From positions 149,980 to 213,979 of the forward strand of contig NZ_JBJMAV010000001.1 in the NCBI RefSeq assembly GCF_046600715.1: a DNA stretch of 64,000 nt, read 5' to 3'. Shown piece after piece: positions 1 to 45,580 of the stretch. The position numbers and the translations under genes are program-made. This DNA is from Novilysobacter viscosus. Its GTDB lineage: Bacteria > Pseudomonadota > Gammaproteobacteria > Xanthomonadales > Xanthomonadaceae. Within the stretch, counting starts at the first letter, position 1, and each line of letters begins with the position of its first letter. Below the pieces are notes generated by a model, which was given only the letters and a program-made list of their open reading frames with translations, did no database searches and was not told the origin of the DNA.

Positions 1-653
1 AGCTGGAGCGGATCGTGCAACGGAACCGGCGTATCGAGCGGGGTGAACGCCTGTTCTGGCCGGGCGCGCCGCTCGCGGGGGTGTACGTGGCACGGGAGGG
101 TGCCTTCAAGACCACGGTGATCGACGAGTCGGGCGAGGAGCAGGTCCTGGGGTTCCACCTGCCCGGGGAAGTGATCGGACTGGACGCGATGGGCACCGGT
201 GTTCACCGCTGCGAGGCCGTCGCGCTGGCCACGGCCGAGGTGTGCGAGATCCCGTTCGCGCAGCTGACCGCGGTGGCGGCGCAATTGCCCTCGCTGCAGC
301 AGCAGCTGATGCGCGTGATCGGGCAGGGCGTGGATCGCGACCAGGTCCACCTCGGCGTGCTGGTGCGACGCCAGGCCAACGAGCGCGTCGCACTGTTCCT
401 GCACGGCCTGGGCGAGCGACTGCGCACCGCAGGCCAGTCCGCGACCCGGATCCGCCTGCCCATGAGTCGCGAGGACATCGCCCGCTACCTCGGCCTGGCG
501 CTGGAGACCGTCAGCCGCGGGTTTTCGCGCCTGCAGGAAGACGGCGTGATCGAAGTGACCGGTCGCCAGGTGGAAGTGGTGGACGCCGCCCTCCTCGCGC
601 GGCTGGCGCACGGCGTTGAGGAGCGCGTGCCGCGCCGGGGTCGCATCGCCTGA
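1..653 (+). CDS. fnr: Crp/Fnr-family transcriptional regulator (FNR/FixK-like), 5' partial
   Basis: Reading frame is open to the window edge. cNMP-binding-like beta-roll and C-terminal HTH (RYLGLALETVSRGFSRLQ). Paralogous to the 42663-43415 FNR. Sits in the classic position next to the cco cluster. Confidence 0.8.
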   Translation, partial: LERIVQRNRRIERGERLFWPGAPLAGVYVAREGAFKTTVIDESGEEQVLGFHLPGEVIGLDAMGTGVHRCEAVALATAEVCEIPFAQLTAVAAQLPSLQQQLMRVIGQGVDRDQVHLGVLVRRQANERVALFLHGLGERLRTAGQSATRIRLPMSREDIARYLGLALETVSRGFSRLQEDGVIEVTGRQVEVVDAALLARLAHGVEERVPRRGRIA

Positions 654-9740: not shown

Positions 9741-10334
9741 TCAGCCCGGACCGGCGGCCCGGCGGACCGCGGCGACGAACTCCGGATCCGGTTGGCTGCC
9801 CATCTGCTCGGTTCGCGCCAGCACCCGCCCCTGGGCGTCAAGCAGGATCAGGGCGCTGGTGTGGTTGAAGTCACCGTCGGCCAGTGCCCGGTAGCGGATG
9901 CCCAGCACGCCGGCCACGCCGCGGACCTGGGACGGTGCGGGGCTGGCCAGCGTCCAGCGCTGCGTATCGAGGCGCCTGGCGTCGACCACCGAGCGCAGCG
10001 CGACGGGGGTGTCGTGCGCGGGATCCATGCTGATCAGCAGGATGTCCACGCGCTGGCGCTGCGCCGGCGTCAGTTCGCGTTCGATCGCCTTGCCCGCGTC
10101 GACGATCAACGGGCAGATGTACTGGCACGACGTATAGAACATCGCCACCACCTGCGGCTTGCCGCGGCGGGCTGACCACGGCTGGCGGCGGCCATCCTGG
10201 TCGGTCAGGTCGACCTTGAGCCGGTACACCGAGTCGCGCGGCAGCGGCGCGGCGTCGGCGGCCGTTGCACCGGGAGTGGCAATGGCCAGGACCAGGCAGG
10301 CGAGGACGAGGACGGAGTGGCGCAACGGTGTCAT
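9741..10334 (-). CDS. SCO1/SenC family copper chaperone
   Basis: Thioredoxin-fold CxxxC (CQYICP), signal peptide/TM, 197 aa. Last gene of the nirK-nirV-sco operon. Confidence 0.85.
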   Translation of the reverse strand: MTPLRHSVLVLACLVLAIATPGATAADAAPLPRDSVYRLKVDLTDQDGRRQPWSARRGKPQVVAMFYTSCQYICPLIVDAGKAIERELTPAQRQRVDILLISMDPAHDTPVALRSVVDARRLDTQRWTLASPAPSQVRGVAGVLGIRYRALADGDFNHTSALILLDAQGRVLARTEQMGSQPDPEFVAAVRRAAGPG

Positions 10335-11116
10335 GGCAGGTCCCGGGCGCAGCGGAATCCGAGGTTGGCGGTGGTGTCGGCGGCGCCCAGAGAGGACAGC
10401 ATGGCCACCCGCATCAGCACCGCATAGTTCTCGCGGTCGTCCATCGACAGCGCACCGGCACCGCAGAAGCGCGCGTTGTCGGGGTCGCCCTGGTTGCGGT
10501 TGTCGGCATCGACCAGCAACGAGGAGAAATCATCGGTCCATTCCCAGACCAGTCCGTGCAGGTCCTGCACGCCATAGGCGTTGGGGGTCTGCAGGCCGGC
10601 ACGGGGCAGGGCGGTGTTGGACGGACGCGAGTACCAGCCGAGGATGCGCTCGCGCCAGACAGGGTCCTTGCGTGCATCGCGGCGGGTCTCGTCGGCGGCG
10701 GCCACGTATTCCCATTCGTTCCAGGTCGGCAGGCGCGCGCCCTGCGATTCGCAGTAGGCCGAGGCGGCAAACCAGCTGACCTGGACGACCGGCGCCTCGG
10801 GCAGGGTGGTCCCGAGCGCGGTCGGGCCCGCCCAGTGCGACAGGTAGCGCGGTTCGGCCATGACGGTGGCGGCGCGGTCGCGGCGCCATTCCGGTTCAGC
10901 CTTGACGAAGGCCAGGAACTCCGCATTCGTCACCGGTCGCTTCATCAGCGCGAACGGTGCGATACGGACGTTCCCGGGCACGTCCTCGTACGCGAGTGCG
11001 CTGCGGAAGCTGCCGCCCGGCAGCTTCACGTACCCCCCGCCGCTGGCAACCTGGCCGGCGACGGGCAGGGCCAGCAACAGCGCCGACGCCAGTACGAGTG
11101 CACGCACCCGGTCCAT
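10331..11116 (-). CDS. nirV: formylglycine-generating-enzyme family protein NirV
   Basis: FGE-sulfatase fold motifs (WEWT, RGGS-like, C-terminal GFRCAR). Signal peptide. Located immediately downstream of nirK, as is typical for nirV. Confidence 0.7.
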   Translation of the reverse strand: MDRVRALVLASALLLALPVAGQVASGGGYVKLPGGSFRSALAYEDVPGNVRIAPFALMKRPVTNAEFLAFVKAEPEWRRDRAATVMAEPRYLSHWAGPTALGTTLPEAPVVQVSWFAASAYCESQGARLPTWNEWEYVAAADETRRDARKDPVWRERILGWYSRPSNTALPRAGLQTPNAYGVQDLHGLVWEWTDDFSSLLVDADNRNQGDPDNARFCGAGALSMDDRENYAVLMRVAMLSSLGAADTTANLGFRCARDLP

Positions 11117-11117
11117 C

Positions 11118-12644
11118 TCAGTGGCCGGCCGACGCGTTGGCGGGTTTCACCGCGCGGATCTGGGCGGCCTCTTCCTTGGTCACGCGGCCGCCGGGGTTGC
11201 CCCAGCTGTTGAGCACGTAGGTGGAGATGTTGGCAACCTCGTCGTCGGTCAGCTGGCTCATCGGCGGCATGATCGAGTTGTAGTCGACGCCGTTGACCGT
11301 GACCGGCCCCTGCAGGCCGTGCAGGATCACGCGCGGCACCGCCTTGGGGTCGTTGGCGATGTAGTCGGCACCGGCCAGCGGCGGGAACACGCCTTCCATG
11401 CCCGCGCCATTGACCTGGTGGCAGGTGGAGCACGTGCCCTGGTAGAGCGCCTCGCCGGCCTTGACCTGCTGCTCGACGGTGAGCTCGCCGGTGCTGGCGG
11501 ACGCGGCCGCTACCGCAACAGCGGCCAGGTTGGGCTGGGCGCGGTCGCCGATGTAGACCGCGTCCACTTCCAGGCCCGAGTAGATTTCCTTGTTCTCCGG
11601 TCCGCTCGCCTGGAGGATGCCCAGGGCGCCCTTGTTGAACGCGCGGAACAGGCTGTGGTCGACCAGGATGTAGCTGCCGGGGACTTCCATGTGGAATTCC
11701 ATCATGGCCGCGCCGCCCGCCGGGATCAGCGTGGTCTGCACGTTCTCCTGGAAGTTCGTGCCGCCCTCGTACCAGACCTTGTCGAAGATCTCGCCGATCA
11801 CGTGGAAGCTCGACACCAGGTTCGGGCCACCGTTGCCCACGTACAGGCGGACGGTCTCGCCGGTGTTGGCGGTCAGCACCTTGTCGCCGGTCATCGAGCC
11901 TTCCGAGCCGTTGAACAGCACGTAGGTCGGGTTCTCGTCGATCGCCTTCTCCATGTCGAACGGCTGCAGGCCCTTCTCCCGGTACTTGCCGGCGGTGTAG
12001 AAGTCGCCCTGCATCACGTAGTACTCCTTGTCGACCGGCGGCAGGCCCTCCGGCGGCTCGACCAGGATCAGGCCGTACATGCCGTTGGCCACGTGCATGC
12101 CCACCGGCGCGGTGGCGCAGTGGTAGACGTAGAGGCCGGCGTTGAGCGCCTTGAAGGTGAAACGGGTCACGTGGCCGGGCGCGGTGAAGCTGGAGGTCGC
12201 GCCGCCGCCCGGGCCGGTGACGCCGTGCAGGTCGATGTTGTGGGGCATCTTGCTGTCGGGCATGTTGCGCAGGTGGAATTCCACCGTGTCGCCCTGGCGA
12301 ACGCGGATGAAGCTGCCGGGCACGGTGCCGCCGAAGGTCCAGAAGGTGTAGTCCACGCCCTCGGAGATCGGCATCACCTTCTCGACCACGTCCAGCTCCA
12401 CCACCACCTTTGCCGGGTAGTCGCGGCCGGTCGGCGGCGGCACCAGCGGCGGGCTGGTCAGCACCGCATCGATCGGCTTGCCCTGGGGTGGTCCGAAGTC
12501 GCCCTTGCGCGAGCCGCCGGTTCCTTCATCGGCAGCGCCGGCACGCGGTGCGTCGGCGGTGGCGTCGTCATTGTCCTGGCCGCAACCGGCCAGGAGCAGT
12601 GCGGCGATGGCGGCGGAAGCCATGAATCGGGTAGCACGGATCAT
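11118..12644 (-). CDS. nirK: copper-containing nitrite reductase NirK with C-terminal cytochrome c domain
   Basis: Type 1 and type 2 Cu ligand motifs ([28 protein letters not shown]), a C-terminal CSTCH heme motif and a lipoprotein signal (LLLAGCGQ). Start chosen at MIRATRF with a GGAG RBS. The upstream 57 aa of the ORF were rejected. Confidence 0.85.
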
Positions 12645-12728: not shown

Positions 12729-12742
12729 CTGATCGTGGTCAA
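12729..12742. promoter_or_regulatory. FNR/NNR-like box cTGATcgtgGTCAA, about 92 bp upstream of nirK
   Basis: 9/10 match to TTGAT-N4-ATCAA-type palindrome, followed by an A7 tract. Confidence 0.45.
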
Positions 12743-12817: not shown

Positions 12818-12831
12818 TTGACCTGCGTCAA
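12818..12831. promoter_or_regulatory. FNR/NNR box TTGACctgcGTCAA in the nirK / UbiT-like divergent region
   Basis: Perfect palindrome, 116 bp upstream of the 12947 ATG and 174 bp upstream of nirK. Confidence 0.55.
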
Positions 12832-12946: not shown

Positions 12947-13861
12947 ATGACGGCACGCACCGCAGGCAACACTGCAGCCGCAGGCACGGTGGGCACCGCC
13001 CCCGACCCGGTGGGCGGCCCCGCGATGGGCACACTGCGGGGCCTGCGACGCGCCATCGATGTGATCGACGACGCGTCGCTGGTCCTGCTTGCCACGCGCG
13101 GCCAGCTGGCACGTGTTGCGGGCCGAATCAAGACGGCACGGGGGCTTCCGCTGCGGGATCCGGCACGCGAGGCACGGGTGCACGCGCGGGCCCGGGCCCT
13201 GGCCCAACGCCTTGGGATCGAGCCGGACACCGCCCGGGCCTTCCGGGCGGTCGCGGTCGCCGATGCCTGCCGTCGCCAGGGCCTGCGACCTGATCTGGGT
13301 CAATGCGCCGGGGCCGGGGGCCCGTTCACGATGGCGGTCATGCCCGGTCCCGTAGAAGCACACCCCGCCGTGCGGCACCTGCTGCGCTGGCTCCCGCCTC
13401 CCTCTCGCCTGGCGCCGGTGCTGCGGCGGTTGCCGGCGGCTGCGAGCCATCAGCTGCTGGGACGCGCGCTGGAAAAGGTCCTTGCGACGCCGGTGTCGAA
13501 CGGCGACTTCGAGTTCATGGTGGGCCGGCGGATCGGCATCGAGGTCATCGACCTGGGGCTGCGCTGGGTCATCCAGTGCGACGAGGCGGGGCTGCGCGCC
13601 GGCGACGGCGCCGCCGAGGCCACGGTGCGCGGCACCGCGACCGACCTGTTGCTGCTCGCCAGCCGGCTGGAAGACGCCGACACGCTGTTCTTCCAGCGCC
13701 GCCTGGTGCTGACCGGGGACGTGGAGCTCGGGCTGACGGCGCGCAACCTGCTGGAAAGGTTGCCCTGGGAGTCGGTGCCATTGGGCATCCGGATCGGCCT
13801 GAATCGCGCTGCACGCCTGGCCAGCGCGGCGCGCGAGGCCCACCACGGGCGCACCGCCTGA
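12947..13861 (+). CDS. AroQ chorismate-mutase-like domain fused to an SCP2 sterol-carrier domain (UbiT-like)
   Basis: N-terminal LRGLRRAIDVIDDASLVLLATRGQLARVAGRIKTARGLPLRDPAREARV matches the AroQ catalytic helix pattern (R..R..K..D..RE). The C-terminal part, DFEFMVGRRIGIEVIDLGLRWVIQC...LTGDVELGLTARNLLERL, matches an SCP2 fold. Internal ATG with a GGGAG RBS. Confidence 0.65.
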   Translation: MTARTAGNTAAAGTVGTAPDPVGGPAMGTLRGLRRAIDVIDDASLVLLATRGQLARVAGRIKTARGLPLRDPAREARVHARARALAQRLGIEPDTARAFRAVAVADACRRQGLRPDLGQCAGAGGPFTMAVMPGPVEAHPAVRHLLRWLPPPSRLAPVLRRLPAAASHQLLGRALEKVLATPVSNGDFEFMVGRRIGIEVIDLGLRWVIQCDEAGLRAGDGAAEATVRGTATDLLLLASRLEDADTLFFQRRLVLTGDVELGLTARNLLERLPWESVPLGIRIGLNRAARLASAAREAHHGRTA

Positions 13862-13910: not shown

Positions 13911-14948
13911 ATGACTGCTACCGCCGCACTGTCCGTGCCACGTTGGCGCGACGAGCTCGAGACCGAGTACGCGCCCCTGGTGGCGACGCTCGAACAACTG
14001 ATCCCGTGCATGGAGGTGCCCATGCACCTGCCGTGGATCGATGCGATCAACACGCTCAAGGAGGACCGCGATGCGGTGATCATGGCGCACAGCTACCAGT
14101 CGCCGGAGATTTTCCACGGGGTGGCCGACGTCACCGGCGACTCGCTGGCGCTCGCGCAGGCGGCGGCCGACTGCGACAGCGGGCTGATCGTGCTGTGCGG
14201 CGTGCACTTCATGGCCGAGAGCGCAAAGATCCTGGCGCCCGCCAAGACCGTACTCATCCCCGACCTGGAAGCGGGCTGCTCGCTGGCGGCGTCCATCACC
14301 GCCGCCGATGTCAGGGCCCTGCGCAAGCGCCACCCGGGTGTTCCGGTGGTCAGCTACGTCAACACCTCGGCAGAAGTGAAGGCCGAGTCGGACGCCTGCT
14401 GCACGTCGGCCAACGCGGTGCAGGTGGTGGAAGCCATCGCGGCCGAAACCGGGGCCCGGCAGGTCATCTTCCTGCCCGACCGCTACCTGGGCAGCTGGGT
14501 GGCAACGCAGACCGGCGTCGAACTGGTGCTGTGGAACGGCACCTGCGAGGTACATGAGACCTTCACCGCGCAGCAGGTGCGGCATACCCGCGAGCAGTTC
14601 GATACCAGGGTGGTCGCGCACCCGGAGTGCTCACCCGAGGTGCTGGCCGAGGCGGATTTCGTCGGTTCCACCAGCGCCATGGGGCGTTGGCTGGAGAAGG
14701 AACAGCCCGCGCGGGTGGCGATGATCACCGAGTGCTCGATGGCCGACAACCTGAAGAACCGGTTCCCGCAGGTGCAGTTCATCAAGCCGTGCAACCTGTG
14801 CCCGCACATGAAGCGCATCACCCTGCAGAACATCCACGCCTGCCTGCGCGACCTCAGGCACGAGGTGGTCGTGGCACCCGACGTGGCGGAGCGGGCGCGC
14901 CGCGCGCTGGACCGGATGCTGGCGGTCGGCCGGCGCGAGCAGGTCTGA
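13911..14948 (+). CDS. nadA: quinolinate synthase
   Basis: 345 aa with a conserved Cys triad and NadA family motifs (VMAHSYQ, CEVH, PECSPE). Confidence 0.9.
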   Translation: MTATAALSVPRWRDELETEYAPLVATLEQLIPCMEVPMHLPWIDAINTLKEDRDAVIMAHSYQSPEIFHGVADVTGDSLALAQAAADCDSGLIVLCGVHFMAESAKILAPAKTVLIPDLEAGCSLAASITAADVRALRKRHPGVPVVSYVNTSAEVKAESDACCTSANAVQVVEAIAAETGARQVIFLPDRYLGSWVATQTGVELVLWNGTCEVHETFTAQQVRHTREQFDTRVVAHPECSPEVLAEADFVGSTSAMGRWLEKEQPARVAMITECSMADNLKNRFPQVQFIKPCNLCPHMKRITLQNIHACLRDLRHEVVVAPDVAERARRALDRMLAVGRREQV

Positions 14949-16403
14949 GTGGCCGCAGGGCGCGTGGTGGTGGTCGGCAGTGGCATCGCCGGCCTGTGTG
15001 TCGCGTTGGCCGCGGCGCCCCGCGCGGTGCTGCTGCTGGGGCGTGCCCACCGGGGTGCCAGCGCGAGCGCATTGGCCCAGGGCGGCATCGCGGCCGCCGT
15101 CGGGGCAGGCGACTGCGCCGACGCGCATGCCCGGGACACGCTGGTGGCGGGCGCGTTCCGCAATGACGCCCCGCGGGTGCGGGCGCTGGTGGACGCGGCG
15201 CCGGGGGCGATCGCGTGGCTGCAGTCGATCGGCGTTGCGTTCGACCAGGACCATGGCCGCCCCAGGCTCGGTCGCGAGGGGGGGCACGGTGCCGCCCGCA
15301 TCGTGCACGCCGGCGGGGATGCCACCGGGGCGGCGGTGATGGCGGCATTGTCGCGGGCCGCCCGCTGCGCAGCGCATATCGAGTGGCACGAGGGAGACGG
15401 GGATGTCGACGCGCTGCTGATGCGCGGTGGCCGGGTGACGGGGGTGCGCCTGTCGCGGGAGGGCGTGCTGCTCAAAGCCGACACGGTGGTATTGGCGACC
15501 GGCGGCATCGGGGCGCTGTTCGCCCGCACCAGCAATCCGGACGGGTCCGATGGCGCCGGGCTGGCGCTGGCGCTGGCCGCGGGCGCGCAGCCACGCGACC
15601 TGGAGTTCATGCAGTTCCACCCCACCGCGATGGACGTTGGCACCGGATCACTCCCGCTGGTCACCGAAGCGCTGCGCGGGGCAGGCGCGAGGCTGCTGGA
15701 CGGAAACGGCAACGCGCTGATGCAGGGCGTTCACCCACAGGGCGACCTTGCACCGCGCGACATCGTTGCGCGACGCGTCTGGCAGGCGCGTCACGAGACG
15801 GGCGCGGCGGTGCTGGATGCGCGGGCAGGCTGGATCGACTGGGAGCGCCGCTTCCCGACCGCACTGGCGGCCTGTCGTGCCCACGGGATCGATCCGCGGC
15901 GGGAGCCGATACCGGTCACGGCGGCGGCGCACTTCCACATGGGCGGCGTGGCGACCGACGACCTCGGCCGCACCAGCGTGCCCGGGCTGCATGCCGTCGG
16001 CGAAGTCGCATGCAACGGCGTCCATGGCGCCAACCGGCTGGCCAGCAATTCGTTGCTGGAGGGCGTGGTCTTCGGCCGCCGGCTGGGGATGCGCCTGGCG
16101 CAGGTCGCTCCCACGGGTGCGTCCGGCCCGCGCACCCTGGCCGAACGTGGCCCGCCACTGGAGGGCGAAGAGCTGGTGCGGCTGCGCACCACCCTGTGGA
16201 ACGCCGCGGGTCCCGTGCGTACGGCCGAGGGGATGACCGCAGGGCTCGAGCAACTGGCCGTCCTTTCCGGTCGAGGCTGGCAGGCGAAACTGGCCGAAGC
16301 GATCCTGGCCGCGGCGCTCCGGCGCGGCACCAGCCTGGGGGCGCACTGGCGGGGCGACAGCGGAGTCCCGAGCCGCCAGGCCGTCGGCTCCAGGGCGGAC
16401 TAG
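14949..16403 (+). CDS. nadB: L-aspartate oxidase
   Basis: FAD-binding GSGIAGL, fumarate reductase/succinate DH flavoprotein family, 484 aa. GTG start abuts the nadA stop. Confidence 0.85.
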   Translation: MAAGRVVVVGSGIAGLCVALAAAPRAVLLLGRAHRGASASALAQGGIAAAVGAGDCADAHARDTLVAGAFRNDAPRVRALVDAAPGAIAWLQSIGVAFDQDHGRPRLGREGGHGAARIVHAGGDATGAAVMAALSRAARCAAHIEWHEGDGDVDALLMRGGRVTGVRLSREGVLLKADTVVLATGGIGALFARTSNPDGSDGAGLALALAAGAQPRDLEFMQFHPTAMDVGTGSLPLVTEALRGAGARLLDGNGNALMQGVHPQGDLAPRDIVARRVWQARHETGAAVLDARAGWIDWERRFPTALAACRAHGIDPRREPIPVTAAAHFHMGGVATDDLGRTSVPGLHAVGEVACNGVHGANRLASNSLLEGVVFGRRLGMRLAQVAPTGASGPRTLAERGPPLEGEELVRLRTTLWNAAGPVRTAEGMTAGLEQLAVLSGRGWQAKLAEAILAAALRRGTSLGAHWRGDSGVPSRQAVGSRAD

Positions 16404-16458: not shown

Positions 16459-16472
16459 TTGACCGTCATCAA
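16459..16472. promoter_or_regulatory. FNR box TTGACcgtcATCAA upstream of fabA
   Basis: 5-4-5 palindrome centred about 62 bp upstream of the fabA ATG. Confidence 0.55.
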
Positions 16473-16526
16473 GCCAAATGCACGCAGGAACGTGCAAAAT
16501 CAGGGTTTCGACAGCGCTTGGATGAC

Positions 16527-17042
16527 ATGGATCGACCTTCTTCGTTCGACTATGAGCAATTGCTGGCCTGCGGCCGTGGCGAGATGTTCGGCCCCGGCAA
16601 CGCGCGCCTGCCGCTACCGCCGATGCTGATGTTCGATCGCATCACCGAGATCTCGACCCAGGGCGGTGCCCACGGCAAGGGCGTGGTCCGGGCCGAGCTG
16701 GATATCCGCCCGGACCTGTGGTTCTTCGATTGCCATTTCCAGGGCGATCCGGTCATGCCCGGCTGCCTCGGGGTGGATGCGATGTGGCAGTTGTGCGGGT
16801 TCTACCTGCCCTGGCTGGGCGCCCCCGGCCGCGGTCGCGCCCTGGGCGTAGGCCAGGTCAAGTTCAGCGGCCAGGTGCTGCCCGACGCCAAGCGGGTGAG
16901 CTACGAGATCGACATTCGCCGCGTGATGCGCGGCAAGCTGGAGTTGGTGATCGCCGACGGACGCACCCTGGTGGACGGTCGTGAGATCTACACCGCCAGC
17001 GACCTGAGGGTCGGGCTGTTCACCTCCACGGAGGGGTTCTGA
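16527..17042 (+). CDS. fabA: 3-hydroxydecanoyl-ACP dehydratase/isomerase
   Basis: 171 aa, FabA hot-dog fold with active-site His/Asp context ([24 protein letters not shown]). Confidence 0.9.
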
Positions 17043-17043
17043 G

Positions 17044-18279
17044 ATGGCCGCCGGAAAAGGCAGGCGCGTGGTCGTCACCGGGATGGGCGTGGTCTCGTGC
17101 CTGGGCAATGACCGTGGCAGCGTGACCCGTTCACTGCGCGAGGGCCGCGCGGGGATCACGTTCATCCCCGAGTACGCGGAACTGGGCCTGCGCAGCCACG
17201 TGGCCGGTGCACCGCAGATCGACCTGGCCGAGCAGATCGACCGCAAGCTCAAGCGCTTCATGGGCGACGCGGCCGGCTACGCCTACGTGGCCATGCGCGA
17301 TGCCATCGCCGACGCCGGACTGGCCGACGACCTTGTCCGTAGTGCACGCACGGGGCTGATTGCCGGGTCCGGCGGGGGTTCGCCGCAGTGGCAGATCGAA
17401 ACCGGTGACCTGCTGCGCAAAAAGGGCGTGCGCAAGGTCGGCCCGTACATGGTGCCGCGCACGATGGGCTCCACGGTGTCGGCCGCGCTGTCCACCGCCT
17501 TCGGCATCCGTGGCCTGAGCTATTCGATATCGGCGGCCTGCGCGACATCCGCCCATTGCATCGGGGCGGCGGCCGACCTGATCCGGCTGGGACGGAAGGA
17601 CGTGATGTTCGCCGGTGGCGGCGAGGAGCTGCACTGGGGCATGACCGCCCAGTTCGATGCCATGGGTGCGCTGTCCAGCAAGCACAACGACACCCCGGCG
17701 TCGGCTTCCCGGCCGTATGACGTGGACCGCGATGGCTTCGTCATCGCCGGCGGCGGCGGCATGCTGGTGCTGGAAGACTACGAGCACGCCCAGGCGCGCG
17801 GCGCGACCATCATCGCCGAGCTGGTCGGCTACGGCGTGACCTCCGACGGCGTCGACATGGTGGCGCCCTCTGGCGAAGGCGCGGTGCGTTGCATGCGCAT
17901 GGCGCTGGAGGGGCTGGACGGCAACAGCGTCGGCACCATCGATTACCTCAATACCCACGGCACGTCCACGCCGGTGGGCGACGTGGTCGAGCTGGGCGCG
18001 GTGCGCGAGGTATTCGGCGACGCAGTGCCGCCGTTGTCCTCGACCAAGGCCCTGTCGGGGCACTCGCTCGGCGCGGCCAGCGTGCACGAGGCGATCTTCT
18101 GCCTGCTCATGATGCAGGAGGGTTTCGTCGCCGGCTCGGCCAACATCGAGACGCTCGACCCCAAGGCCGAGGGGTTCCCGATTCTTCGCGAAAGCCGCGA
18201 TGCAGAGCTCGGGACGGTGATGTCCAACAGCTTCGGCTTTGGCGGCACCAACGCCACGCTGGTGTTCGCGAAAGCCTGA
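17044..18279 (+). CDS. fabB: 3-oxoacyl-ACP synthase I
   Basis: KAS I family with active-site Cys ([10 protein letters not shown]) and His/His ([18 protein letters not shown]). 411 aa. Confidence 0.9.
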
Positions 18280-18400: not shown

Positions 18401-18460
18401 CGACGTCGCCCTTGACCCGCGTCATGGCGGGGTGCCCGCCGCGGGCGCGACGATTGCGCC

Positions 18461-18910
18461 ATGCCCACCACCGCCTATCCGTATCTGTTGCTGCTGCACC
18501 TGTTCGGCGCGATCGCATTCGCCGGCACGGTGTTCTTCGAGGTGGTGATCCTGGAAGGGGTGCGCCGGCACGTGCCAGCGCGGGTGATGACGCTCGTCGA
18601 GGGGGGTATCGGAAAGCGCGCCCGGCAGGTGATTCCCCGAGTGTTGCTGTTGCTCTACGGCAGTGGCCTGGGGATGGCCTGGCACTATCGCGCGGCCCTC
18701 GCGGATCCGCTGGCGAGCAGTTTCAGCCTGCTGTTGACGATCAAGATCGTGCTGGCGCTCAGCGTGTTCGGCCACTTCCTGCTGGCGATGGCCCTGCGAA
18801 GGCGACAGCGACCGGTCGCGGACGCCTACCGGCGCATCCATTACAGCGTGTTCGGCCACGTCGTGGCGATCGTGCTGCTGGCCAAGGCGATGTTCCACCT
18901 GCACGGGTGA
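18461..18910 (+). CDS. hypothetical 4-TM membrane protein
   Basis: 149 aa with four hydrophobic helices. Preceded by a degenerate FNR-like site TTGACccgcGTCAt (18412-18425). Confidence 0.45.
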   Translation: MPTTAYPYLLLLHLFGAIAFAGTVFFEVVILEGVRRHVPARVMTLVEGGIGKRARQVIPRVLLLLYGSGLGMAWHYRAALADPLASSFSLLLTIKIVLALSVFGHFLLAMALRRRQRPVADAYRRIHYSVFGHVVAIVLLAKAMFHLHG

Positions 18911-19840: not shown

Positions 19841-20839
19841 TCAATGCCACGAGCGGTGGTAGGGGCCGAGGGTGGTCTGGTGGCCTTCGGCCTGGCTCGA
19901 CAGCGAGCGCTGCCACTGCGGATCCACGGTCCATGCATCCGGCGCGGCGGCGTGACGGTCCAGCGCGGCCCGCCATGTACGGGTTACCGCACCGACGTAG
20001 GCCACGCCCCGCTGCCTGCCTTCGATCTTCAGCGCCGCGACGCCGGCGCGGGCAAGCCGCGGCAGCAGTTCCATCGTATTGAGGCTGGTGGGCTCCTCCA
20101 GCGCATGGAAGGTCTCTCCGCCCACTTCGAACCGGCCCTTGCAGACGGTGGGATAACCGGCAGGTTCACTGGGTTCGAAGCGGTCGATCAGCACGTCATT
20201 GAGGTGCGCGGTGCGGCTGCCGTCGTCGAGCTCGTCCCAGCGGACGAACCTGGCCGGCGAGCACACCCCGTGCCGGTTGGGCGAGGCACCGGTGACGTAG
20301 CTGGACAACTGGCAGCGACCCTCGACCATGATGCACAGGCTGCCGAAGGCGAACACCTCGATGGCGACCGGCGAGCGCTGGCACAGGCGTTCGACCTGCT
20401 GGATGGACAACACGCGCGGCAGCACCGCGCGGGAAATGCCGAAGCGCTCGTAGGCGAACCGCAGCGCCGGCTCGGAGGTCGCCGAGCCTTGCACGGACAG
20501 GTGCCGCGGCAGGTCCGGATAGCGCCGTGCCGCGTAGGCCAGGATCGCGATCTCGGCGGCGATGATCGCGTCGCAGCCGAACGCGGCCGCGCGGTCGACC
20601 GCGGCCTGCCACATCGGCAGGCGCGCGCTGTCGGGATAGGTGTTGAGGGCCAGGTACACCTTGGCGCCCTTCGCATGCGCATAGCGGATGCCGGCCTGCA
20701 GCTCCTGGTCGGAGAAGTTCAGGCCGGGAAAGGCGCGGGCGTTGGTCTGGTCGCGGAAGCCGGCGTAGACCGCGTTGGCCCCGGCGTTTACGGCCGCCTG
20801 CAGTGCCGGCAGGTTGCCGGCAGGACATACCAGTTGCAT
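19841..20839 (-). CDS. ubiU: U32-family protein UbiU
   Basis: MQLVCPAGNLPALQAAVNAGANAVYAGF is a typical U32/YhbU N-terminus. Cys cluster (CIMVEGRCQLSSY, CSPARF). 332 aa. Confidence 0.75.
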   Translation of the reverse strand: MQLVCPAGNLPALQAAVNAGANAVYAGFRDQTNARAFPGLNFSDQELQAGIRYAHAKGAKVYLALNTYPDSARLPMWQAAVDRAAAFGCDAIIAAEIAILAYAARRYPDLPRHLSVQGSATSEPALRFAYERFGISRAVLPRVLSIQQVERLCQRSPVAIEVFAFGSLCIMVEGRCQLSSYVTGASPNRHGVCSPARFVRWDELDDGSRTAHLNDVLIDRFEPSEPAGYPTVCKGRFEVGGETFHALEEPTSLNTMELLPRLARAGVAALKIEGRQRGVAYVGAVTRTWRAALDRHAAAPDAWTVDPQWQRSLSSQAEGHQTTLGPYHRSWH

Positions 20840-20895: not shown

Positions 20896-20909
20896 TTGAC
20901 CTGGGTCAG
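20896..20909. promoter_or_regulatory. FNR-like box TTGACctggGTCAg upstream of ubiU
   Basis: 9/10 palindrome, about 64 bp upstream of the ubiU ATG. Same spacer sequence as the ccoN box. Confidence 0.5.
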
Positions 20910-21650
20910 GTGCCGAGGCCGTTGAGGCGTCTAGGATCGGCTGGCAGACCCCCAGGTCATCCGGAGCTACCCTTGAACGTTATCGCCCGATCTTCCCTCC
21001 TGCCGCTGCTGCTGTGTCCCGCCTTTGCGCTTGCCGCGCCGGCGCAGGACGCGCATGCGGATGCGCATCGCGAACACTCAACGCAGTCCCCGCAGTCCCC
21101 GCAGTCCCCGCAGTCCCCGCAGTCCCCGCAGTCCCCGCAGTCCGGTCATTCCGGTCATTCCGTTCATTCCGTTCATTCCGGGCATTCCGTTCATTCCGGG
21201 CATTCCGTTCATTCCGGGCATTCCGGGCATTCCGGGCATTCCGGGCATTCCGGGCGTGCAGCCGACCCTGCGCACGGGCAATCGACCGGCGGTGCAGGGA
21301 CCAGCGCCCCGCCCGACGGCGTGCGCTTCCAGGCAGACGCACCGCTGATGAAGGGCATGCGGCGCATGTCGGAACTGGTGCAAGGGCTTCAACACGGTCG
21401 ACAGGGCCATCTGGGGCCCGACCAGGTCAGGCAGCTCGCCACCGGCGTCAACCAGGCCGCCGCCGCGATGTTTGCCGAATGCCAGTTGCCTCCGGAGCCC
21501 GATGCGGCGCTGCATGGCTTGCTGGCCCGACTGATGGCCGGGGCTGGCGCGCTGGACGCCGACCCTGCCAACCTGGCGCCGCTTGATGACATGGATGCGG
21601 CGGTACGCGACTACACCCGGCTGTTCGACGACCCCGGGTTCCCGGACTGA
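20910..21650 (+). CDS. secreted His-rich tandem-repeat protein (SPQ x6, HSG/HSV x about 13) with a CpxP/Spy-like C-terminal domain
   Basis: Signal-like segment LNVIARSSLLPLLLCPAFALAAP. The true start may be TTG at about 20973 after a GGAG. Composition-biased repeats. C-terminal helical domain with an LxxDQxxQL-type motif. Confidence 0.55.
   Translation: MPRPLRRLGSAGRPPGHPELPLNVIARSSLLPLLLCPAFALAAPAQDAHADAHREHSTQSPQSPQSPQSPQSPQSPQSGHSGHSVHSVHSGHSVHSGHSVHSGHSGHSGHSGHSGRAADPAHGQSTGGAGTSAPPDGVRFQADAPLMKGMRRMSELVQGLQHGRQGHLGPDQVRQLATGVNQAAAAMFAECQLPPEPDAALHGLLARLMAGAGALDADPANLAPLDDMDAAVRDYTRLFDDPGFPD
21078..21260 (+). repeat. in-frame 9-nt tandem DNA repeats (CAGTCCCCG x6, then CATTCCGKK x about 14)
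   Basis: Direct visual repeats, period 9 nt. Confidence 0.9.
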
Positions 21651-23107
21651 ACTTCGGCCCAGAGCGCATCAACCCGGCGTTCGATGGCCGGTGCCAGCTG
21701 GATGGGCCGGCTCCACGTACGGCTGGTCTCGCCCGGCCACTTGTTGGTCGCGTCCAGGCCCAGTTTCGAGCCCAACCCGGGCCGTGGGCTGGCGAAATCC
21801 AGGTAGTCGATCGGCGTGTCGTTGACCAGCATCGAGTCGCGCGCCGGGTCGACCCGCGTCGACACCGCCCAGATCACCTGCGACCAGTCGCGCACGTCGA
21901 TGTCGTCGTCGGTGACGATCACGAACTTGGTGTAGGTGAACTGCCGCAGGTACGACCACACGCCCATCATGATGCGCCGCGCATGGCCGGCGTACTGCTT
22001 GCGGATCGACACCACCGCGATCCGGTAGGAGCAGGCTTCCGGCGGCAGGTAGAAGTCGACGATCTCCGGGAACACCTTGCGCAGGATCGGCACGAAGATG
22101 TCGTTGAGCGCCATCGCCAGCACCGATGGCTCGTCGTGGGGCGCCCGGCCCATGTAGCTGCCGTGGTAGATCGCGTCCTGCCGGAGGTGCATGCGCTCGA
22201 TGCCCAGCACCGGGAAGTGGTCGGCCGCGTTGTAATAGCCGGTGTGGTCGCCGAACGGGCCTTCCAGCGCGGTGTCGCCGGGTTGGATGACGCCTTCGAT
22301 GAGCATCTCGGCGCCGGCAGGGGCATCCAGGCCGGTGCGCTCGCTGTGCCAGAGCCGGGTGCGCTCACCCCGCAGCAGGCCCGCGAACTCGTACTCCGAC
22401 AGGGTGTCGGGCACCGGCGCCACTGCCGCGAGCATCGTGGCCGGATCGGCGCCGATGGCCACCAGCACCGGGAACGGCCGGTCGGGGTGGTCGGCGATCC
22501 AGTCGGCATGGTCCAGGGCACCACCGCGGTGCGGCAGCCAACGCATGATCACCCTGTCCGGGCCGATCACCTGCATCCGGTAGATGGCCACGTTCTGGCG
22601 CGGCTTGCGGGTGCCGCGGGTGATCACCAGGCCGAACGTGACCAGCCGCGCCGCGTCCCCGGGCCAACATTGCTGGATCGGAAGCCGCGAGAGGTCGATC
22701 TCGCTGCCGGCGAGCGTTTCGTGCCCGAACGCGGCTTCGCGTTCCCGCCTGGGGGCCACGTGTGCCAGTTGTGCCAGCTCCGGCCAGGTCGACAGGGCCT
22801 GCTTGAGGCTCGACGGCCAGCGCGGCTCCTTGATGGCCGCGAGCAGCTCGCCGAGCTCACGCAGGCTCGCCAACGGCCTCCCGGCCAGCGCCGCTTCGAT
22901 CCGGTCCCGATGGCCGAACAGGTTGCCCAGCAGCGAATGCCGCGCCCCGGTCGGGTTCTCCATGAGCAGTGCCGGCCCGCCGGCCTTGAGTGCGCGCAGG
23001 CACAGCGAAGTCGATTCAAGGTCCGGGTCCACCGGCTGCGGGACGCGGCGCAGCTGGCCCGTCGCCTCCAGGCGGGCAAGGAACGAACGCAGGTCGTGGT
23101 GGGCCAT
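21611..23107 (-). CDS. ubiD: 4-hydroxy-3-polyprenylbenzoate decarboxylase
   Basis: 498 aa, UbiD family (prFMN-dependent) motifs. Converges on the His-rich gene with a 40-nt overlap. Confidence 0.85.
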   Translation of the reverse strand: MAHHDLRSFLARLEATGQLRRVPQPVDPDLESTSLCLRALKAGGPALLMENPTGARHSLLGNLFGHRDRIEAALAGRPLASLRELGELLAAIKEPRWPSSLKQALSTWPELAQLAHVAPRREREAAFGHETLAGSEIDLSRLPIQQCWPGDAARLVTFGLVITRGTRKPRQNVAIYRMQVIGPDRVIMRWLPHRGGALDHADWIADHPDRPFPVLVAIGADPATMLAAVAPVPDTLSEYEFAGLLRGERTRLWHSERTGLDAPAGAEMLIEGVIQPGDTALEGPFGDHTGYYNAADHFPVLGIERMHLRQDAIYHGSYMGRAPHDEPSVLAMALNDIFVPILRKVFPEIVDFYLPPEACSYRIAVVSIRKQYAGHARRIMMGVWSYLRQFTYTKFVIVTDDDIDVRDWSQVIWAVSTRVDPARDSMLVNDTPIDYLDFASPRPGLGSKLGLDATNKWPGETSRTWSRPIQLAPAIERRVDALWAEVQSGNPGSSNSRV

Positions 23108-23438
23108 GGGCGGGGCGGGGCGTGGAGGGACACCGAGCCTCGCAGGTGGCGATCCGCCGTGCCCTGACGCCAGTCAAGCCGGGCGCGGGCCGGGTTGGCG
23201 GCAGCAGGCGCGCGGCCAACCGGGACGATCCGCGGACGCGGGAGCCGCACATACGTGTTCAATGGCAGTGCCGCGGCACGCTGCGCGGCGACAAGGCGTC
23301 TTGTCGAGCGACGCCCTGCCGAACCGAAGTGCACGGGCAAGGGACCGTCGCGACCCCGCCGCTCGTTGGGGTACCAGGCCGCGACTTGCGTCGCTCCTGT
23401 ATGAGCTGCGGCCGGTCCTGCCGGCCCAGCGCCGCCGG

Positions 23439-24536: not shown

Positions 24537-25285
24537 GGCGATGGCTCCCTGTCGGCCGGGGTTGGATGTTGCGGAGTATGCGGTGTGGGCGCGGGCGCGG
24601 AGGCCTGGAGCGAGGCGATCAGCCGGCGCAGGGCGTGCTCGTCGTGTTCGGTCCCGCGAGGGGTGCCGGCGTTGGATCGCTTGTTGATCGCCGCCCCTGC
24701 CGCCTGCTGGTGCCACAGCGGCACGAGCAGGTCGCGTACCTGGTGGTAGCGCTCCAGTACCCGGCGGATGTGTGCGGCTTCCAGCTCCAGCTGTGCGCGG
24801 GTGGTGCGCCACGAGTCGCCGAGGGCCTGGAAGTAGTCAAGGCGACGATGGGCCGACGCGCCGGAAGCGGCGCAAGCCTCGCGGCTGCTGGTTACGAACG
24901 CGTCCATGGCGGCGATCTGCTGCTCCACCGGGACGGGTAGCGCCGCGAGGTCGGACAGATGCCGCTGGACGCGTTCTGCGTGTTCGCTGGCGTGTGCCAG
25001 GTGCACCCGCAGGCGCGCATCGGCTGCGTCCGGGTGCGCCTGGGCCACGAGGTCCCAGCCGAGCAGGCGGCCCAGGAGTCCCGCCCGGCGCCGGGTACGT
25101 TGCGCATCCGATGCGTCGATCACTTCGACGATCGCAGCCAGGTCGGCGAGCAGGCGGGCCGCCGGCGCGCGGGCGAGCAATCGGCTGATCGCCTCGAAGT
25201 CGAGACGCGATGCGATCTCGTGACCCCGGCGGTCGATCTCCCCGGGCGTGTCTGCAGCCGCGTTGCCGGCGCCGGGCGCGTTCAC
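24533..25285 (-). CDS. hypothetical 250-aa protein coupled between the giant ATPase and TelA (possibly XpaC-like)
   Basis: No recognisable motif. Helical, Ala/Arg-rich. Start and stop both overlap its neighbours. Confidence 0.55.
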   Translation of the reverse strand: MNAPGAGNAAADTPGEIDRRGHEIASRLDFEAISRLLARAPAARLLADLAAIVEVIDASDAQRTRRRAGLLGRLLGWDLVAQAHPDAADARLRVHLAHASEHAERVQRHLSDLAALPVPVEQQIAAMDAFVTSSREACAASGASAHRRLDYFQALGDSWRTTRAQLELEAAHIRRVLERYHQVRDLLVPLWHQQAAGAAINKRSNAGTPRGTEHDEHALRRLIASLQASAPAPTPHTPQHPTPADREPSP

Positions 25286-28200
25286 CGAGCCGCCGGTGCG
25301 TCCGCAAGGCCGGCATGCAGGCGCGCAAGGGCCTCATCGAGCCGGCGCTCCTCAGGTGTCGGAGTGTGCGGCGCGCGGCCGGTCGGAGGCCGGGCCGTCA
25401 TGCGGGCACGGATCGCGCTGGCCAGGTGGAGCATCGCGTTGCTCAGCTGGTCCTGGTGGCCCTGGCTTGAATGGATGGCGGCGACCAGAGGCTGGATTGC
25501 AGTCTTGACCAGCGCGTCGACGTCGTCCGTTCCGGGGCGCGGCGCGTCCACGCGGCGGTCAGCGACCACCCGCTCCAGCAGTGCCAGGGCGTCTTTCCAG
25601 GGCGGCGACTCGGACGCCGCCGGGGCATCGCCCGCCGGGCCGGCGACGGCACTACCCATCGCCTGCAGCCCACCGGCGATGTCGGCCAGCTGCGCCACCA
25701 CCCGGCCGCCGACGTCCGCGTCCTCGGCGCCCATCGCCTTGTTGCGCAGGAAGTCGTGCTTGATCTGCGCCCAGCGGGCCTGCTCGGTGGCGGTCAGCAC
25801 GCCGCGCAGCTCCTTGAGCTTGAGCAGGTTCTCCTCGGCACCGACGGTCAGAAGTTGCGCTTCGCCCTGGTAGTGGTCGCTGATCAGTTGCTGCAATTCA
25901 CCCTCGTTCATCACCGGCGAAATCTTCTCGACCAGCTTGTTCATGTTGCGATAGCTGCCCTGCAGCTTGAACGCCGGTTCGGTACGGTACTTGTCGGCCT
26001 GCGCGGCGGATGCGATGTACTGCTGGTTCACGCGGTACACGACATCGCGCACCTTCATGACCCGGACCAGGGTTTCGACGAACTCGTTGATCTCCGCCGC
26101 ACTGTAGGCATGGGACAGGTCGGTCGCCGAAACCTGCTCGCCCCGCGCCTTGTCGACGAGGCGATGGAGGTCGGCCAGGTCGCGCGTTGCAAGCGGCGCG
26201 AGCAGCGGACTGGAGGTCAGGCTGTTCTCGACGTAGCTCAGGGTGAAGGTGTCTTCCACCCCGCCCAGGACATCGCCCAGGTTGTAGATGTCGGCGCGGT
26301 TGGCCAGCATGTCGGGGATCTTGAACACTTCGCCCGACTCGGTGTACGGGTTTCCCGCCATGACCACGCAGAACTTCTTGCCGCGCATGTCGTAGGTGCG
26401 CGTCCGCCCCTTCCAGACGCCCTCGACGCGGCGCGTGCCATCGCATAGGGAGATGAACTTCTGCAGGAACTCGGGGTGCGTGTGCTGGATGTCGTCGACA
26501 TAGAGCATCACGTTGTTGCCCATCTCGAAGGCGAGGTTGAGCTTCTCCAGCTCCTGTCGCGACGTGGCGTCCGGCGCCTGCGCGGGGTCGACCGAACGGA
26601 CCTCGTGCCCCAGCGCGGGCCCGTTGATCTTCATGAAGACCAGGCCCAGCCGGCTTGCCACGTACTCCATGAGCGTCGTCTTGCCGTAGCCGGGGGGCGA
26701 AATCATCATCAGCAGGCCCATAAGGTCGCTGCGCTTGCCTTCCCCTGCGGTACCCATCTGCTTGGCGAGGTTGTCGCCGATGATCGGAAGGTAGACCTCG
26801 TTGATCAGCTTGTTGCGCACGAACGAGGACAGCGGACGCGCCTGGAATTCACCCAGCCGAAGCGCGGTGCGCTCGCGTGCGGCGACTTCGTTGCGCACCT
26901 GGTGGTAGCGCCGGAACCCGGGAACGAACCGTTCGCGGTGCACGCGCAGACGGGCGAGCAGGTCGTCGACGGCCAGCTCCATGCGCCCGTCTGAAATCCG
27001 CGGGTGATCGCCCAGCAAGCCCTCGACCGTGGTGGTGAGGGCCACCGGGTGGTCGCGGAACGAGAGCGCATCCCGCGCCAGGATCCATGCGGCGGACTCG
27101 GGGACGTACGGCGCCATCGCCGCCGCCGCCGGGGTGTTGCACAGTGCCTGGAGCCAGTGCAGGACGTGCTGCCAGCGGGCGTCGGGACGGTCCTCGAGCA
27201 GGTCCAAGGTGTGCTGGAAGGGCGCCTGCAAGCTCGCGCTGGCCAAGCGGGACTCCAGCATTTCGGCCAGTTCACGGCCCTGTCGCGAGAGCACCAGGCC
27301 CGGTTCGCCGCTGGTGAGGTGGTCGGACAGGAAGTCGGCGGCAGCCCTTGCGCAGGAGGCGTCGAATGGCAGCCCCCGCTCCTGCGCGAACCCGGCCAGT
27401 CGCGTGGCCATGTCGGCGCGCAAGGCGTCCAGGCTGTCGCGCGATCCGAACAGCCGGTGCATGGCCAACGCACCGGCGGCACGCGGCTCCCATTGGGCTA
27501 CGTCCGCATCGTCGCCGTGCGATGCCAGCAGCAGGGTCGCCAGTGCACGCGGCGCGGGGGCGTGGATTAGGTTGCCTGCGACGTCGCGCTGGGCCAGGAA
27601 GGCCCGGAGGATGAGTGCGGCGTCATGGTCGTGGATGCCCCGCTCGTAGCCATCGCGGTAGCGGGGCGCGGCGAACTCACGAACCGCCCGGGCGAGGGCG
27701 TCGGGGTCGCTCGCCAATTTCTGCAGCGTCTCATCGTCAAGCCCGTCGCTACCGGCCGAGGCCGCTGCGACCAGCTCGCCTGCGAGGTACTCCGCGCGGT
27801 ACAGCGCCGGTGATTCCGACTCCAGCCCCAGCTGCCAGTACTCACGCAGCTCCGCCAGCCTGGCGTCTTCGATGGGCTCCATGAAATCGGTGCCGGTCAG
27901 GTGCAGGGCCAGCCGGTCACCGCGCGGCAGGATAGTGAGGTCCAGCGGCTGGGTGTTCACGCTGAAGCGGTGGCGGCCCAGCCGGATGACCTGGCCGTCG
28001 CCCTCGAACAGATCCACGCGATCACGCAGTGCGCGCACGGCCTGGTCGCGCGCGCCCTTCAGCCGGGCTTCGACGTCATCGGCCTTCACCGAGTCCTTCA
28101 GTGAGCGCAGCCGCTCGGCGAGTTCGCGGACCTTGAGGATCAAGGGATCCCCGGCAAAGAAGGCGTTGAGTTCGTCGGGACTGGAGAACTTTTCGGTGCG

Positions 28201-30597: not shown

Positions 30598-30667
30598 CGT
30601 GGAACCTCGCCCGCGCAGGCGGGCCATCCATGCTGCAATCGGGAGGGCAGGCGTCGGAGGCGGTCGC

Positions 30668-30925
30668 TCAGGCAACCTCGACCGGTACCGGCCCCAGTTT
30701 CCGGCGCAGCGCATCCAGGCGCACCTTCATTGCGGAATCGATCTCGTCGGGCTGGATGCGCGAGATGATGTTGTTGAGGACACGGCTCTCGTCGTCGTTG
30801 ATGGTGCCGTCGCGTTCGGCGATCGCCACGATCCGGTCGAGCTCGGCCGCCTCCAGGCGTCCGTCGTCGGCGAAGCAGGTGATGGAGTGGAAGGCCATTT
30901 CCAGGTGGTCGCGATTCACGGTCAT
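30668..30925 (-). CDS. small TerB-like (tellurite-resistance TerB N-domain-like) protein
   Basis: 85 aa, FADDGRLEAAELDRIVAIAERDGTINDDESRVLNNII resembles the TerB/DjlA N-terminal acidic helical repeat. AAGGA RBS. Confidence 0.45.
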   Translation of the reverse strand: MTVNRDHLEMAFHSITCFADDGRLEAAELDRIVAIAERDGTINDDESRVLNNIISRIQPDEIDSAMKVRLDALRRKLGPVPVEVA

Positions 30926-42430: not shown

Positions 42431-42485
42431 CGAGGCATCTCCGTGAATGGCTGCATCATGCTCGCGGTTGGCGCGGTCAACCGCG

Positions 42486-42499
42486 TTGACTCAGGTCAA
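42486..42499. promoter_or_regulatory. NNR/DNR-type box TTGACtcagGTCAA upstream of norB
   Basis: Perfect palindrome, 56 bp upstream of the norB ATG. Confidence 0.65.
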
Positions 42500-42662
42500 G
42501 TTTCGTCAGGACGATTCTGCCAACCAGGCCCGCGCTGTCAGGAACCGGGCCCCAGCGCCACGTGCAGCCGTGTGCATCGCAGCGCAGCGCGGCGCTGCGC
42601 GGACCATGGTCGGCCGTGTCCCGGGAGCGGGAAAGTGACTTCCGCGTTGTTACGGCCGGCGC

Positions 42663-43415: not shown

Positions 43416-43434
43416 GCGCGCCCCCGGGGCGATG

Positions 43435-44832: not shown

Positions 44833-44866
44833 GCGTGCAGGCTATGGCGCTGCCTGCGCGGGTGCC

Positions 44867-44880
44867 TTGATCTCGGTCAA
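44867..44880. promoter_or_regulatory. FNR box TTGATctcgGTCAA upstream of hemN
   Basis: Centred 41.5 bp upstream of the hemN ATG. Confidence 0.65.
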
Positions 44881-44904
44881 ACCCCGCCGTCAGGCGGGCA
44901 AGGC

Positions 44905-45498: not shown

Positions 45499-45580
45499 GC
45501 GGCTGATTTTACGCCGGTGCGGTCCCCGCTGCCGGCCGTGGGTGTCCAGAGCGTCCGCCGCACCCGTTTCGCCACCTCGG

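Follow-up and report, generated by a model that had tools for sequence, protein, structure and literature searches.

The DNA analysed here is a 64,000-nucleotide (nt) stretch of the Novilysobacter viscosus genome (NCBI RefSeq assembly GCF_046600715.1, contig NZ_JBJMAV010000001.1, positions 149,980 to 213,979), which we call the window and number from its first letter; its G+C content is 66-74%. On its plus strand, divergent from nirK (11121-12644, minus strand, ATG at 12644), lies a gene predicted to encode a 304 amino acid (aa) protein (12947..13861) in which a chorismate mutase (CM) family domain precedes the lipid-carrier protein UbiT. The start codon of this CM::ubiT gene is uncertain. NCBI annotates the ATG at 12947, which has a GGGAG 11 nt to its 5′ side; an alternative ATG lies at 13025, and the longest open frame begins with a TTG at 12818. 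The annotated frame has a coding-type composition over its whole length, with a G+C content of 0.83 at third codon positions (GC3) and GC1 > GC2. The databases list a 100% identical protein of 304 aa from Lysobacter sp. A3-1-A15, which the NCBI annotation pipeline (PGAP) has named 'ubiquinone anaerobic biosynthesis accessory factor UbiT'. An earlier reading of the sequence, the original prediction, had proposed a fusion of an AroQ-like N-terminal domain to an SCP2 domain, divergent from nirK. Hidden Markov model searches bore out this architecture, both matches lying above cutoff: Pfam CM_2 aligned with aa 33-100 (56.1 bits against a gathering score of 27, E 4.4e-15, although over model positions 1-68 of 80 only), and Pfam SCP2 with aa 181-269 (49.2 bits against 21.3, E 6.9e-13).

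The C-terminal half could be assigned more precisely. The NCBIfam equivalog NF047962, 'SCP2_dom_UbiT', scored 120 bits (cutoff 46.9) and aligned model positions 1-119 of 120 with aa 159-275, which places the SCP2/UbiT core domain at 13421..13771, and this half shares 37% identity with Escherichia coli UbiT over 135 aa. In an AlphaFold2 monomer model of the whole protein (mean predicted local distance difference test score, pLDDT, 74.6), the SCP2 domain had a mean pLDDT of ~70-90 per 10-residue block, and its best matches in the PDB were those of UbiJ-SCP2 (6h6p/6h6o, template modelling (TM) score 0.70). Because of the equivalog score, the identity to E. coli UbiT and the PGAP name, we take the C-terminal half to be, by sequence, a complete UbiT, an orthologue rather than a mere analogue. 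The original prediction, which spoke of a candidate UbiT analogue, had therefore named the right role but put it too cautiously. It had also found no stand-alone ubiT; tblastn within the 64 kb window likewise detected no second UbiT or CM homologue.

The N-terminal domain (aa 28-111, 13028..13279) is assigned to the AroQ-type CMs by the CM_2 match, by the structural model and by a profile match to 1ecm, the CM domain of E. coli PheA (EcCM). For the latter, we built a profile from 27 diverse CM domains of the family and compared it with the PDB. Its best match was 1ecm (E 9.3e-13), ungapped over EcCM residues 7-90. The modelled helices (aa 26-64, 72-89 and 93-110; pLDDT ~79-91 per 10-residue block) superposed on 1ecm at 1.1 Å over 83-84 residues, with a TM score of 0.82-0.87. 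Active-site residues were then counted across 200 family sequences in the ungapped register confirmed by the 1ecm profile match; a MAFFT alignment of 201 sequences, in which helix 3 was misplaced, was set aside. Seven of the eight EcCM active-site residues are kept and essentially invariant, including the Arg, Lys, Asp and Arg-Glu positions noted originally. R34 (13046..13048) corresponds to EcCM R11, the Arg given to the partner subunit's active site, R51 (13097-13099) to R28, K62 (13130..13132) to K39, R74-E75 (13166-13171) to R51-E52 and Q111 (13277-13279) to Q88, each present in 200/200 sequences, and D71 (13157-13159) corresponds to D48, present in 199/200. In EcCM, Lys39 and Gln88 contact the ether oxygen of the transition state. 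The sole active-site difference is A107 (13265..13267), at the position of EcCM S84, with Ala in 190/200 sequences and Gly in 10/200.

Mean pairwise identity within the family is 54% in the CM domain, 74% in the UbiT domain, 27% in the linker and 15% in the N-terminal extension. Invariance of the catalytic residues at only 54% identity requires selection on the translated CM domain. True stand-alone CMs are ~34-52% identical to the CM domain of the fusion, and the nearest apparently 'stand-alone' relatives among 50% cluster representatives (P0126, P0144 and others) turned out to be truncated pieces of fusion proteins. By profile, the domain is a CM-family member lying outside the curated subfamilies.

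A scan of one genome per species returned 298 related loci, and the counts of domains and neighbouring genes below were taken from the best 80. Both domains were found in a single frame in 80/80 of these, with at least half of the fusion length matched in 78/80. The loci belong to Lysobacteraceae (Lysobacter, Luteimonas, Thermomonas, Arenimonas, Stenotrophomonas, Pseudoxanthomonas, Xanthomonas chitinilytica) and Rhodanobacteraceae (Dyella, Rhodanobacter, Frateuria, Dokdonella, Rudaea). Similarly, both Pfam domains were present in 120/120 of the best protein clusters (Lysobacter, Novilysobacter, Stenotrophomonas acidaminiphila, Thermomonas, Dokdonella), the fusion clusters bearing the Joint Genome Institute (JGI) name 'predicted lipid carrier protein YhbT/chorismate mutase', and the CM and UbiT domains were in frame in 200/200 sequences over 19 linker lengths of 23-52 aa. 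In-frame fusion across relatives means that the gene is neither a single-strain oddity nor an annotation artefact. On this comparative evidence, the fusion is the standard form of UbiT across Lysobacterales; the architecture is unusual, as had been supposed, but it is locally not rare.

The neighbourhood of the fusion is also conserved, in the order CM-ubiT, nadA-nadB, fabA-fabB, ubiV-ubiU (convergent) and ubiD. Among the 80 loci, ubiV was found in 65 and ubiU in 63 (both within 10 kb), nadA in 57, ubiD in 47 and fabAB in 41, and ubiV-ubiU directly adjoin the fusion in several genomes. In the window, ubiV (18946-~19830; NCBIfam 342 bits against a cutoff of 275, 43% identity to E. coli UbiV), ubiU (19844-20839; 523 bits against 440, 56% identity to E. 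coli UbiU) and ubiD, of the 4-hydroxy-3-polyprenylbenzoate decarboxylase family (21614..23107), lie 5-9 kb away on the minus strand, in agreement with the linkage originally described. Between them and CM::ubiT are nadA (13911-14948), nadB (14949-16403), fabA (~16524-17042) and fabB (17044-18279), all on the plus strand. The nadAB and fabAB routes need no O2, making quinolinate from aspartate and unsaturated fatty acids anaerobically; with these routes between CM-ubiT and ubiVU in most Lysobacterales, the block looks like an 'oxygen-independent biosynthesis' island.

Published work on the E. coli pathway suggests why a CM should be joined to UbiT. Prephenate, the product of CM, is essential for anaerobic ubiquinone synthesis in E. 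coli, where a mutant without pheA and tyrA is rescued by the CM domain of PheA on its own, and all three hydroxyl oxygens of the UbiU-UbiV-dependent steps come from prephenate (Ferizhendi et al., PNAS 2024, PMC10990095). This evidence consists of E. coli genetics and isotope labelling, with no in vitro UbiU-UbiV assay yet, and the paper names neither UbiT nor any fusion (PMC10990095). UbiT has been proposed to present lipid intermediates to UbiU-UbiV, and it is needed at the hydroxylation stage, on prenylated intermediates, and not in ring formation (PMC6747719). From homology and synteny, the UbiT domain of the fusion would hold polyprenyl-phenol intermediates for the UbiU-UbiV hydroxylases. 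The intact catalytic residues and the published role of prephenate suggest that the CM domain would turn chorismate into prephenate, the oxygen donor used three times per ubiquinone by UbiU-UbiV. Since CM would make prephenate and UbiT would hold the lipid, the fusion would place the source of the co-substrate and the carrier of the substrate in one protein. They further suggest that donor production could be tied to the pathway and be independent of housekeeping CM, which in model bacteria (PheA, TyrA) is feedback-regulated by aromatic amino acids. AroQ enzymes are obligate intertwined dimers, so the long protein would presumably be a dimer with two UbiT domains. We conclude that the gene is best explained as the Lysobacterales form of UbiT carrying an N-terminal AroQ chorismate mutase, and give this explanation as a whole a probability of about 60%. 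The CM domain may then secure or localise the prephenate supply for the three hydroxylations.

A second feature of the gene resides in its linker. Scanning for the FNR-type pattern TTGAY-N4-RTCAA identified a box with 1 mismatch, CTGATCTGGGTCAA (13290..13303), at the domain junction inside the open reading frame, where it encodes P-D-L-G-Q. A -10-like hexamer, CACGAT (13327..13332, plus strand), follows 31-36 nt to the right of the box centre, and an in-frame ATG, that of linker M132, would start a short product of 173 aa, a stand-alone UbiT (13340..13861, plus strand). The junction box (at most 1 mismatch) was present in 67/81 loci. Box position 2 was T in 65/65 distinct loci, although the codons that end on it specify 10 different amino acids; where these codons are strictly four-fold degenerate it was T in 36/36, compared with 6% T at such codons elsewhere in the same genes. 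Codon choice was also skewed for Gln inside the box (CAA in 54/64, compared with 21% gene-wide) and for Asp (GAT in 50/50, compared with 39%), and the remaining 51.8 kb of the same genes held one other such box. On these codon statistics, the seemingly conserved 'DLDQG' peptide of the family is a DNA site, the FNR-type box.

To the right of the box, the spacing of the elements is fixed. The hexamer has the family consensus CAT[G/C]AT, with A2 and T6 invariant in 65/65 distinct loci, and the interval from box to hexamer is without insertions or deletions inside a linker of otherwise variable length. A 'CA' is found 43-44 nt to the right of the box centre, and 61-62 of the 67 loci with a box have an in-frame ATG 44 or 47 nt to the right of that centre. 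In a class II FNR promoter, a TTGAT-N4-ATCAA box is centred ~41.5 nt 5′ of the transcription start and a -10 element is present, while no -35 element is needed. Box, -10-like element and ATG appear to reproduce this layout, which would yield a leaderless mRNA or one with a 3-nt leader. A Shine-Dalgarno-dependent internal start at the linker Met was considered and rejected: the anti-Shine-Dalgarno duplex energy, taken at the best of up to 3 Mets, was -3.5 kcal/mol compared with -2.2 for the background mean, and it fell in the best decile for only 26% of loci. This absence of a Shine-Dalgarno signal ahead of the linker Met is what led us to a leaderless promoter.

The window carries both an upstream and an internal FNR-type box. 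The former, a perfect box in the nirK/CM-ubiT intergenic region (TTGACCTGCGTCAA, 12818..12831), lies ~122 nt 5′ of ATG 12947 and is likely the promoter element for the long product. Most loci with an internal box have none upstream: an upstream box was found in 12/67 of them, compared with 10/14 of those without an internal box (Fisher p 1.7e-4, uncorrected for phylogeny). Of the four remaining loci without either box, three keep an internal box with two mismatches. As a family feature the upstream box was rejected, since only 22/80 loci have one (at most 1 mismatch) in the 330 nt upstream; upstream FNR control is therefore not what is conserved. In the mechanism we propose, the upstream promoter would give CM::UbiT, and the linker promoter would give, under low oxygen, a near-leaderless mRNA for the 173-aa UbiT, so that both the fusion protein and a separate UbiT are probably made from this locus. 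The fused frame would retain the promoter and start codon of the ancestral ubiT, the linker being a translated promoter. That the whole order has built the making of the oxygen donor into its anaerobic ubiquinone machinery through this fusion, that the fusion arose by read-through of the ancestral promoter, that the linker promoter still functions, and that two proteins under different control result is a proposition to which, taken jointly, we give somewhat less than even odds.

Several points weigh against these interpretations. The -10-like element overlaps hydrophobic codons (Met/Ile-Ile), which makes its conservation inseparable from protein-level constraint, and the box would be centred at about -42.5 to -43.5 instead of the canonical -41.5. 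The E. coli ubiT promoter, tried and rejected as a geometric precedent, has a leader of ~50 nt with a GGGAG Shine-Dalgarno sequence, so leaderless geometry is no general ubiT feature. The locus counts come from relatives that are not phylogenetically independent. In the monomer model, the linker is disordered (aa 117-135, pLDDT <50) and the predicted TM score is 0.49, so that the model conveys no interdomain information; channelling of prephenate to UbiU-UbiV, or a CM-UbiU-UbiV contact, is speculation. All 200 sequences have Ala or Gly in place of EcCM Ser84, and all 20 NCBIfam CM equivalogs tested (PRK09239, TIGR01795 and TIGR01797 among them) scored below cutoff, the best reaching 53.8 bits against 120. 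Finally, a domain that binds its ligand without catalysis could also show invariant ligand-contacting residues.

The points concerning the CM domain lead to the rival explanation that survives best, in which this domain is non-catalytic, a ligand-binding (prephenate/chorismate), regulatory or dimerisation module, and UbiT function is unchanged. Besides the loss of Ser84 and the missed equivalog cutoffs, such a module would agree with the faster evolution of the CM domain relative to the UbiT domain, and with the apparent ability of most genomes to make a CM-free UbiT from the internal promoter. Yet dimerisation alone would not require seven invariant active-site residues, Lys39 and Gln88 among them, and the closest structural and profile match of the domain is an active enzyme, EcCM. 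The Ser84 position, moreover, varies among solved, named CMs, being Val in 3rmi and apparently Asn in MjCM, so Ala there is no strong argument against activity. We consider a non-catalytic module unlikely.

Another rival keeps the function that the original prediction had suggested for the N-terminal domain, namely the binding and channelling of chorismate, the ring precursor, or a chorismate or isochorismate pyruvate-lyase-like activity that makes 4-hydroxybenzoate beside the carrier. Chorismate is indeed the precursor of 4-hydroxybenzoate, the AroQ fold gave rise to the pyruvate lyase PchB, and PchB entries are among the weak PDB matches. In the same search with the family CM profile, however, PchB fell far below EcCM (E 1.6e-4 against 9.3e-13), and the NCBIfam isochorismate lyase model reached 14 bits, whereas the five CM models with the highest scores reached 38-54 bits. 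UbiT acts at the hydroxylation of prenylated intermediates, after ring prenylation (PMC6747719), and an experimentally supported role for prephenate in exactly these steps already exists (PMC10990095). A role in ring supply, whether by channelling or by lyase activity, is thus improbable, and the lyase reading was rejected on the model scores. Least probable by our estimate is a merely apparent fusion whose real gene is a short ubiT from 13340, the CM frame being a decaying remnant or an untranslated leader kept open by chance in GC-rich DNA: the full promoter-like unit and start codon ahead of the UbiT part, and the poor conservation of N-terminal extension and linker, would suit it, but the frame is continuous in all 200 sequences whatever the linker length, is coding-like in composition throughout, keeps catalytic residues that imply selection on a translated CM domain, and persists as a fusion in 14 loci that have lost the internal box.

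FNR-type boxes also occur elsewhere in the window. Five perfect boxes were found against 0.06 expected by chance, and all five precede low-oxygen genes: besides the box between nirK and CM-ubiT, they lie ahead of ccoN (9606), fabA (16459-16472, true start near 16524), the quinol NO reductase gene (42486) and hemN (44867). FNR-like boxes with 1 mismatch are also present on the nirK side of the intergenic region (12729..12742, ~91 nt 5′ of the nirK ATG), upstream of ubiU (20896-20909) and ahead of ubiD (23164-23177). The longest fabA open reading frame (GTG 16428, to 17042) is probably ~32 codons too long: NCBIfam FabA models match only from aa 34-38, and the FNR box falls inside the extension. 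A Fnr-family regulator gene (15-653, plus strand) adjoins ccoNOP-ccoGI(S); its N-terminus is cut by the window edge and it matches from model position 47. A second low-oxygen cluster at 40106-45876 comprises the quinol-type NO reductase (a NorB with a cytochrome-c-like domain), a second Crp/Fnr-family regulator (42666-43505), hemN (43438-44841) and a cysteine-dioxygenase-like protein.

The nirK product has a C-terminal cytochrome c domain (aa ~393-481), and nirK is followed by an FGE-sulfatase-family (NirV-like) gene (10334-11116, minus strand); the two genes are found next to the fusion in roughly half of the related loci. Many genera have 3-6 kb of unrelated genes between nirK and the fusion, coding for a porin-like protein, a TonB receptor and a cd1-type protein. 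One such gene in Arenimonas soli (L052:5402-7648) encodes a 749-aa protein with two cytochrome c domains and one cytochrome d1 (NirS-type) domain, and this genome may encode both copper and cd1 nitrite reductases. In the complete genome of Dyella jiangningensis SBZ 3-12 (CP007444.1), the whole island (fnr-like, nirK, nirV, CM-ubiT, fabAB, ubiVU, ubiD) occurs twice (L026, L028) with identical match coordinates, as a large duplication or an assembly repeat. Three open reading frames of the window on the plus strand, 18416-18907, 20910-21647 and 24959-25870, are coding-like without a Pfam or NCBIfam match; the first begins at an FNR-like box (18412-18425) and is shared only with Lysobacter spongiicola (L034). 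Downstream of a telA-like gene lies a gene, unrelated to the present finding, for a 1810-aa DUF3686 ('ATPase involved in DNA repair') and DUF7902 protein (25285-30714, minus strand).

Both domains are already recognised by annotation pipelines, and the gene already carries the name UbiT. No paper linking UbiT with a chorismate mutase was found in the literature searched, a search that was not exhaustive, so that an earlier mention is possible. Relative to the literature found, what is new is the order-wide CM::UbiT, its prephenate-based interpretation, and a candidate FNR promoter in the linker that would imply two isoforms. An order-wide, selectively maintained fusion would give comparative-genomic support to prephenate as the oxygen donor, a role identified only in 2024. 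If the interpretation is correct, CM::UbiT would amount to a naturally occurring 'Rosetta stone' for prephenate-dependent hydroxylation, with prephenate made, and perhaps handed over, inside a UbiT-UbiU-UbiV complex. Such a chorismate-to-prephenate-to-hydroxylation complex could help in vitro reconstitution, and the fusion may be an easier protein for studying UbiT-UbiU-UbiV complexes. It also raises the question of whether donor supply is limiting in denitrifiers without menaquinone. The linker promoter, for its part, would illustrate that a gene fusion can keep the regulation of its downstream gene and make two isoforms, and that linker residues which look conserved can in reality reflect a binding site for a transcription factor.

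Comparison with known systems places the fusion as follows. With UbiT (YhbT) of E. coli and Pseudomonas aeruginosa it shares the UbiT equivalog, nearby ubiU-ubiV and FNR-type boxes, and the 174 aa of E. coli UbiT are nearly those of the predicted 173-aa short product. To E. coli UbiT the fusion adds an AroQ CM of ~90 aa and a linker of ~30 aa, and whereas E. coli ubiT is adjacent to and divergent from ubiU, the fusion lies 5 kb from ubiVU with nadAB and fabAB between. With EcCM it shares the three-helix protomer and seven active-site equivalents; it differs in having Ala for Ser84, a lipid carrier in place of prephenate dehydratase as partner, and no Phe-binding regulatory domain. PchB has the same fold and a similar active-site constellation, but it is a much weaker match, and no salicylate or siderophore gene context is found at the fusion.

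A natural tie between UbiT and another component of the O2-independent pathway has a precedent, the UbiT-UbiU fusion of Zymomonas mobilis, present in two genomes and cited as an argument that the two share a function (Pelosi et al. 2019, PMC6747719). There the partner is a hydroxylase subunit, whereas here, order-wide, it would be the maker of the hydroxylase co-substrate. Prephenate-dependent hydroxylation has been reported for the U32 proteins UbiU-UbiV, TrhP and RlhA (PMC10990095, PMC6599085, PMC5727448), and in this chemistry, which makes sense of the fusion, the CM product serves as oxygen donor. The E. coli U32 systems draw prephenate from the housekeeping enzymes PheA and TyrA, in contrast to the fused CM here; no dedicated or fused CM for a U32 hydroxylation system was described in the literature searched. 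Lastly, E. coli ubiT has a distal constitutive promoter, P1, and a proximal Fnr-dependent one, P2 (PMC10470549). The Lysobacterales gene resembles it in having two nested candidate starts, the proximal one with an FNR site. It differs in that the predicted proximal promoter lies inside the open reading frame and is near-leaderless, where E. coli ubiT has its ~50-nt leader, and in that a translated CM domain lies between the two starts, which would thereby yield two different proteins.

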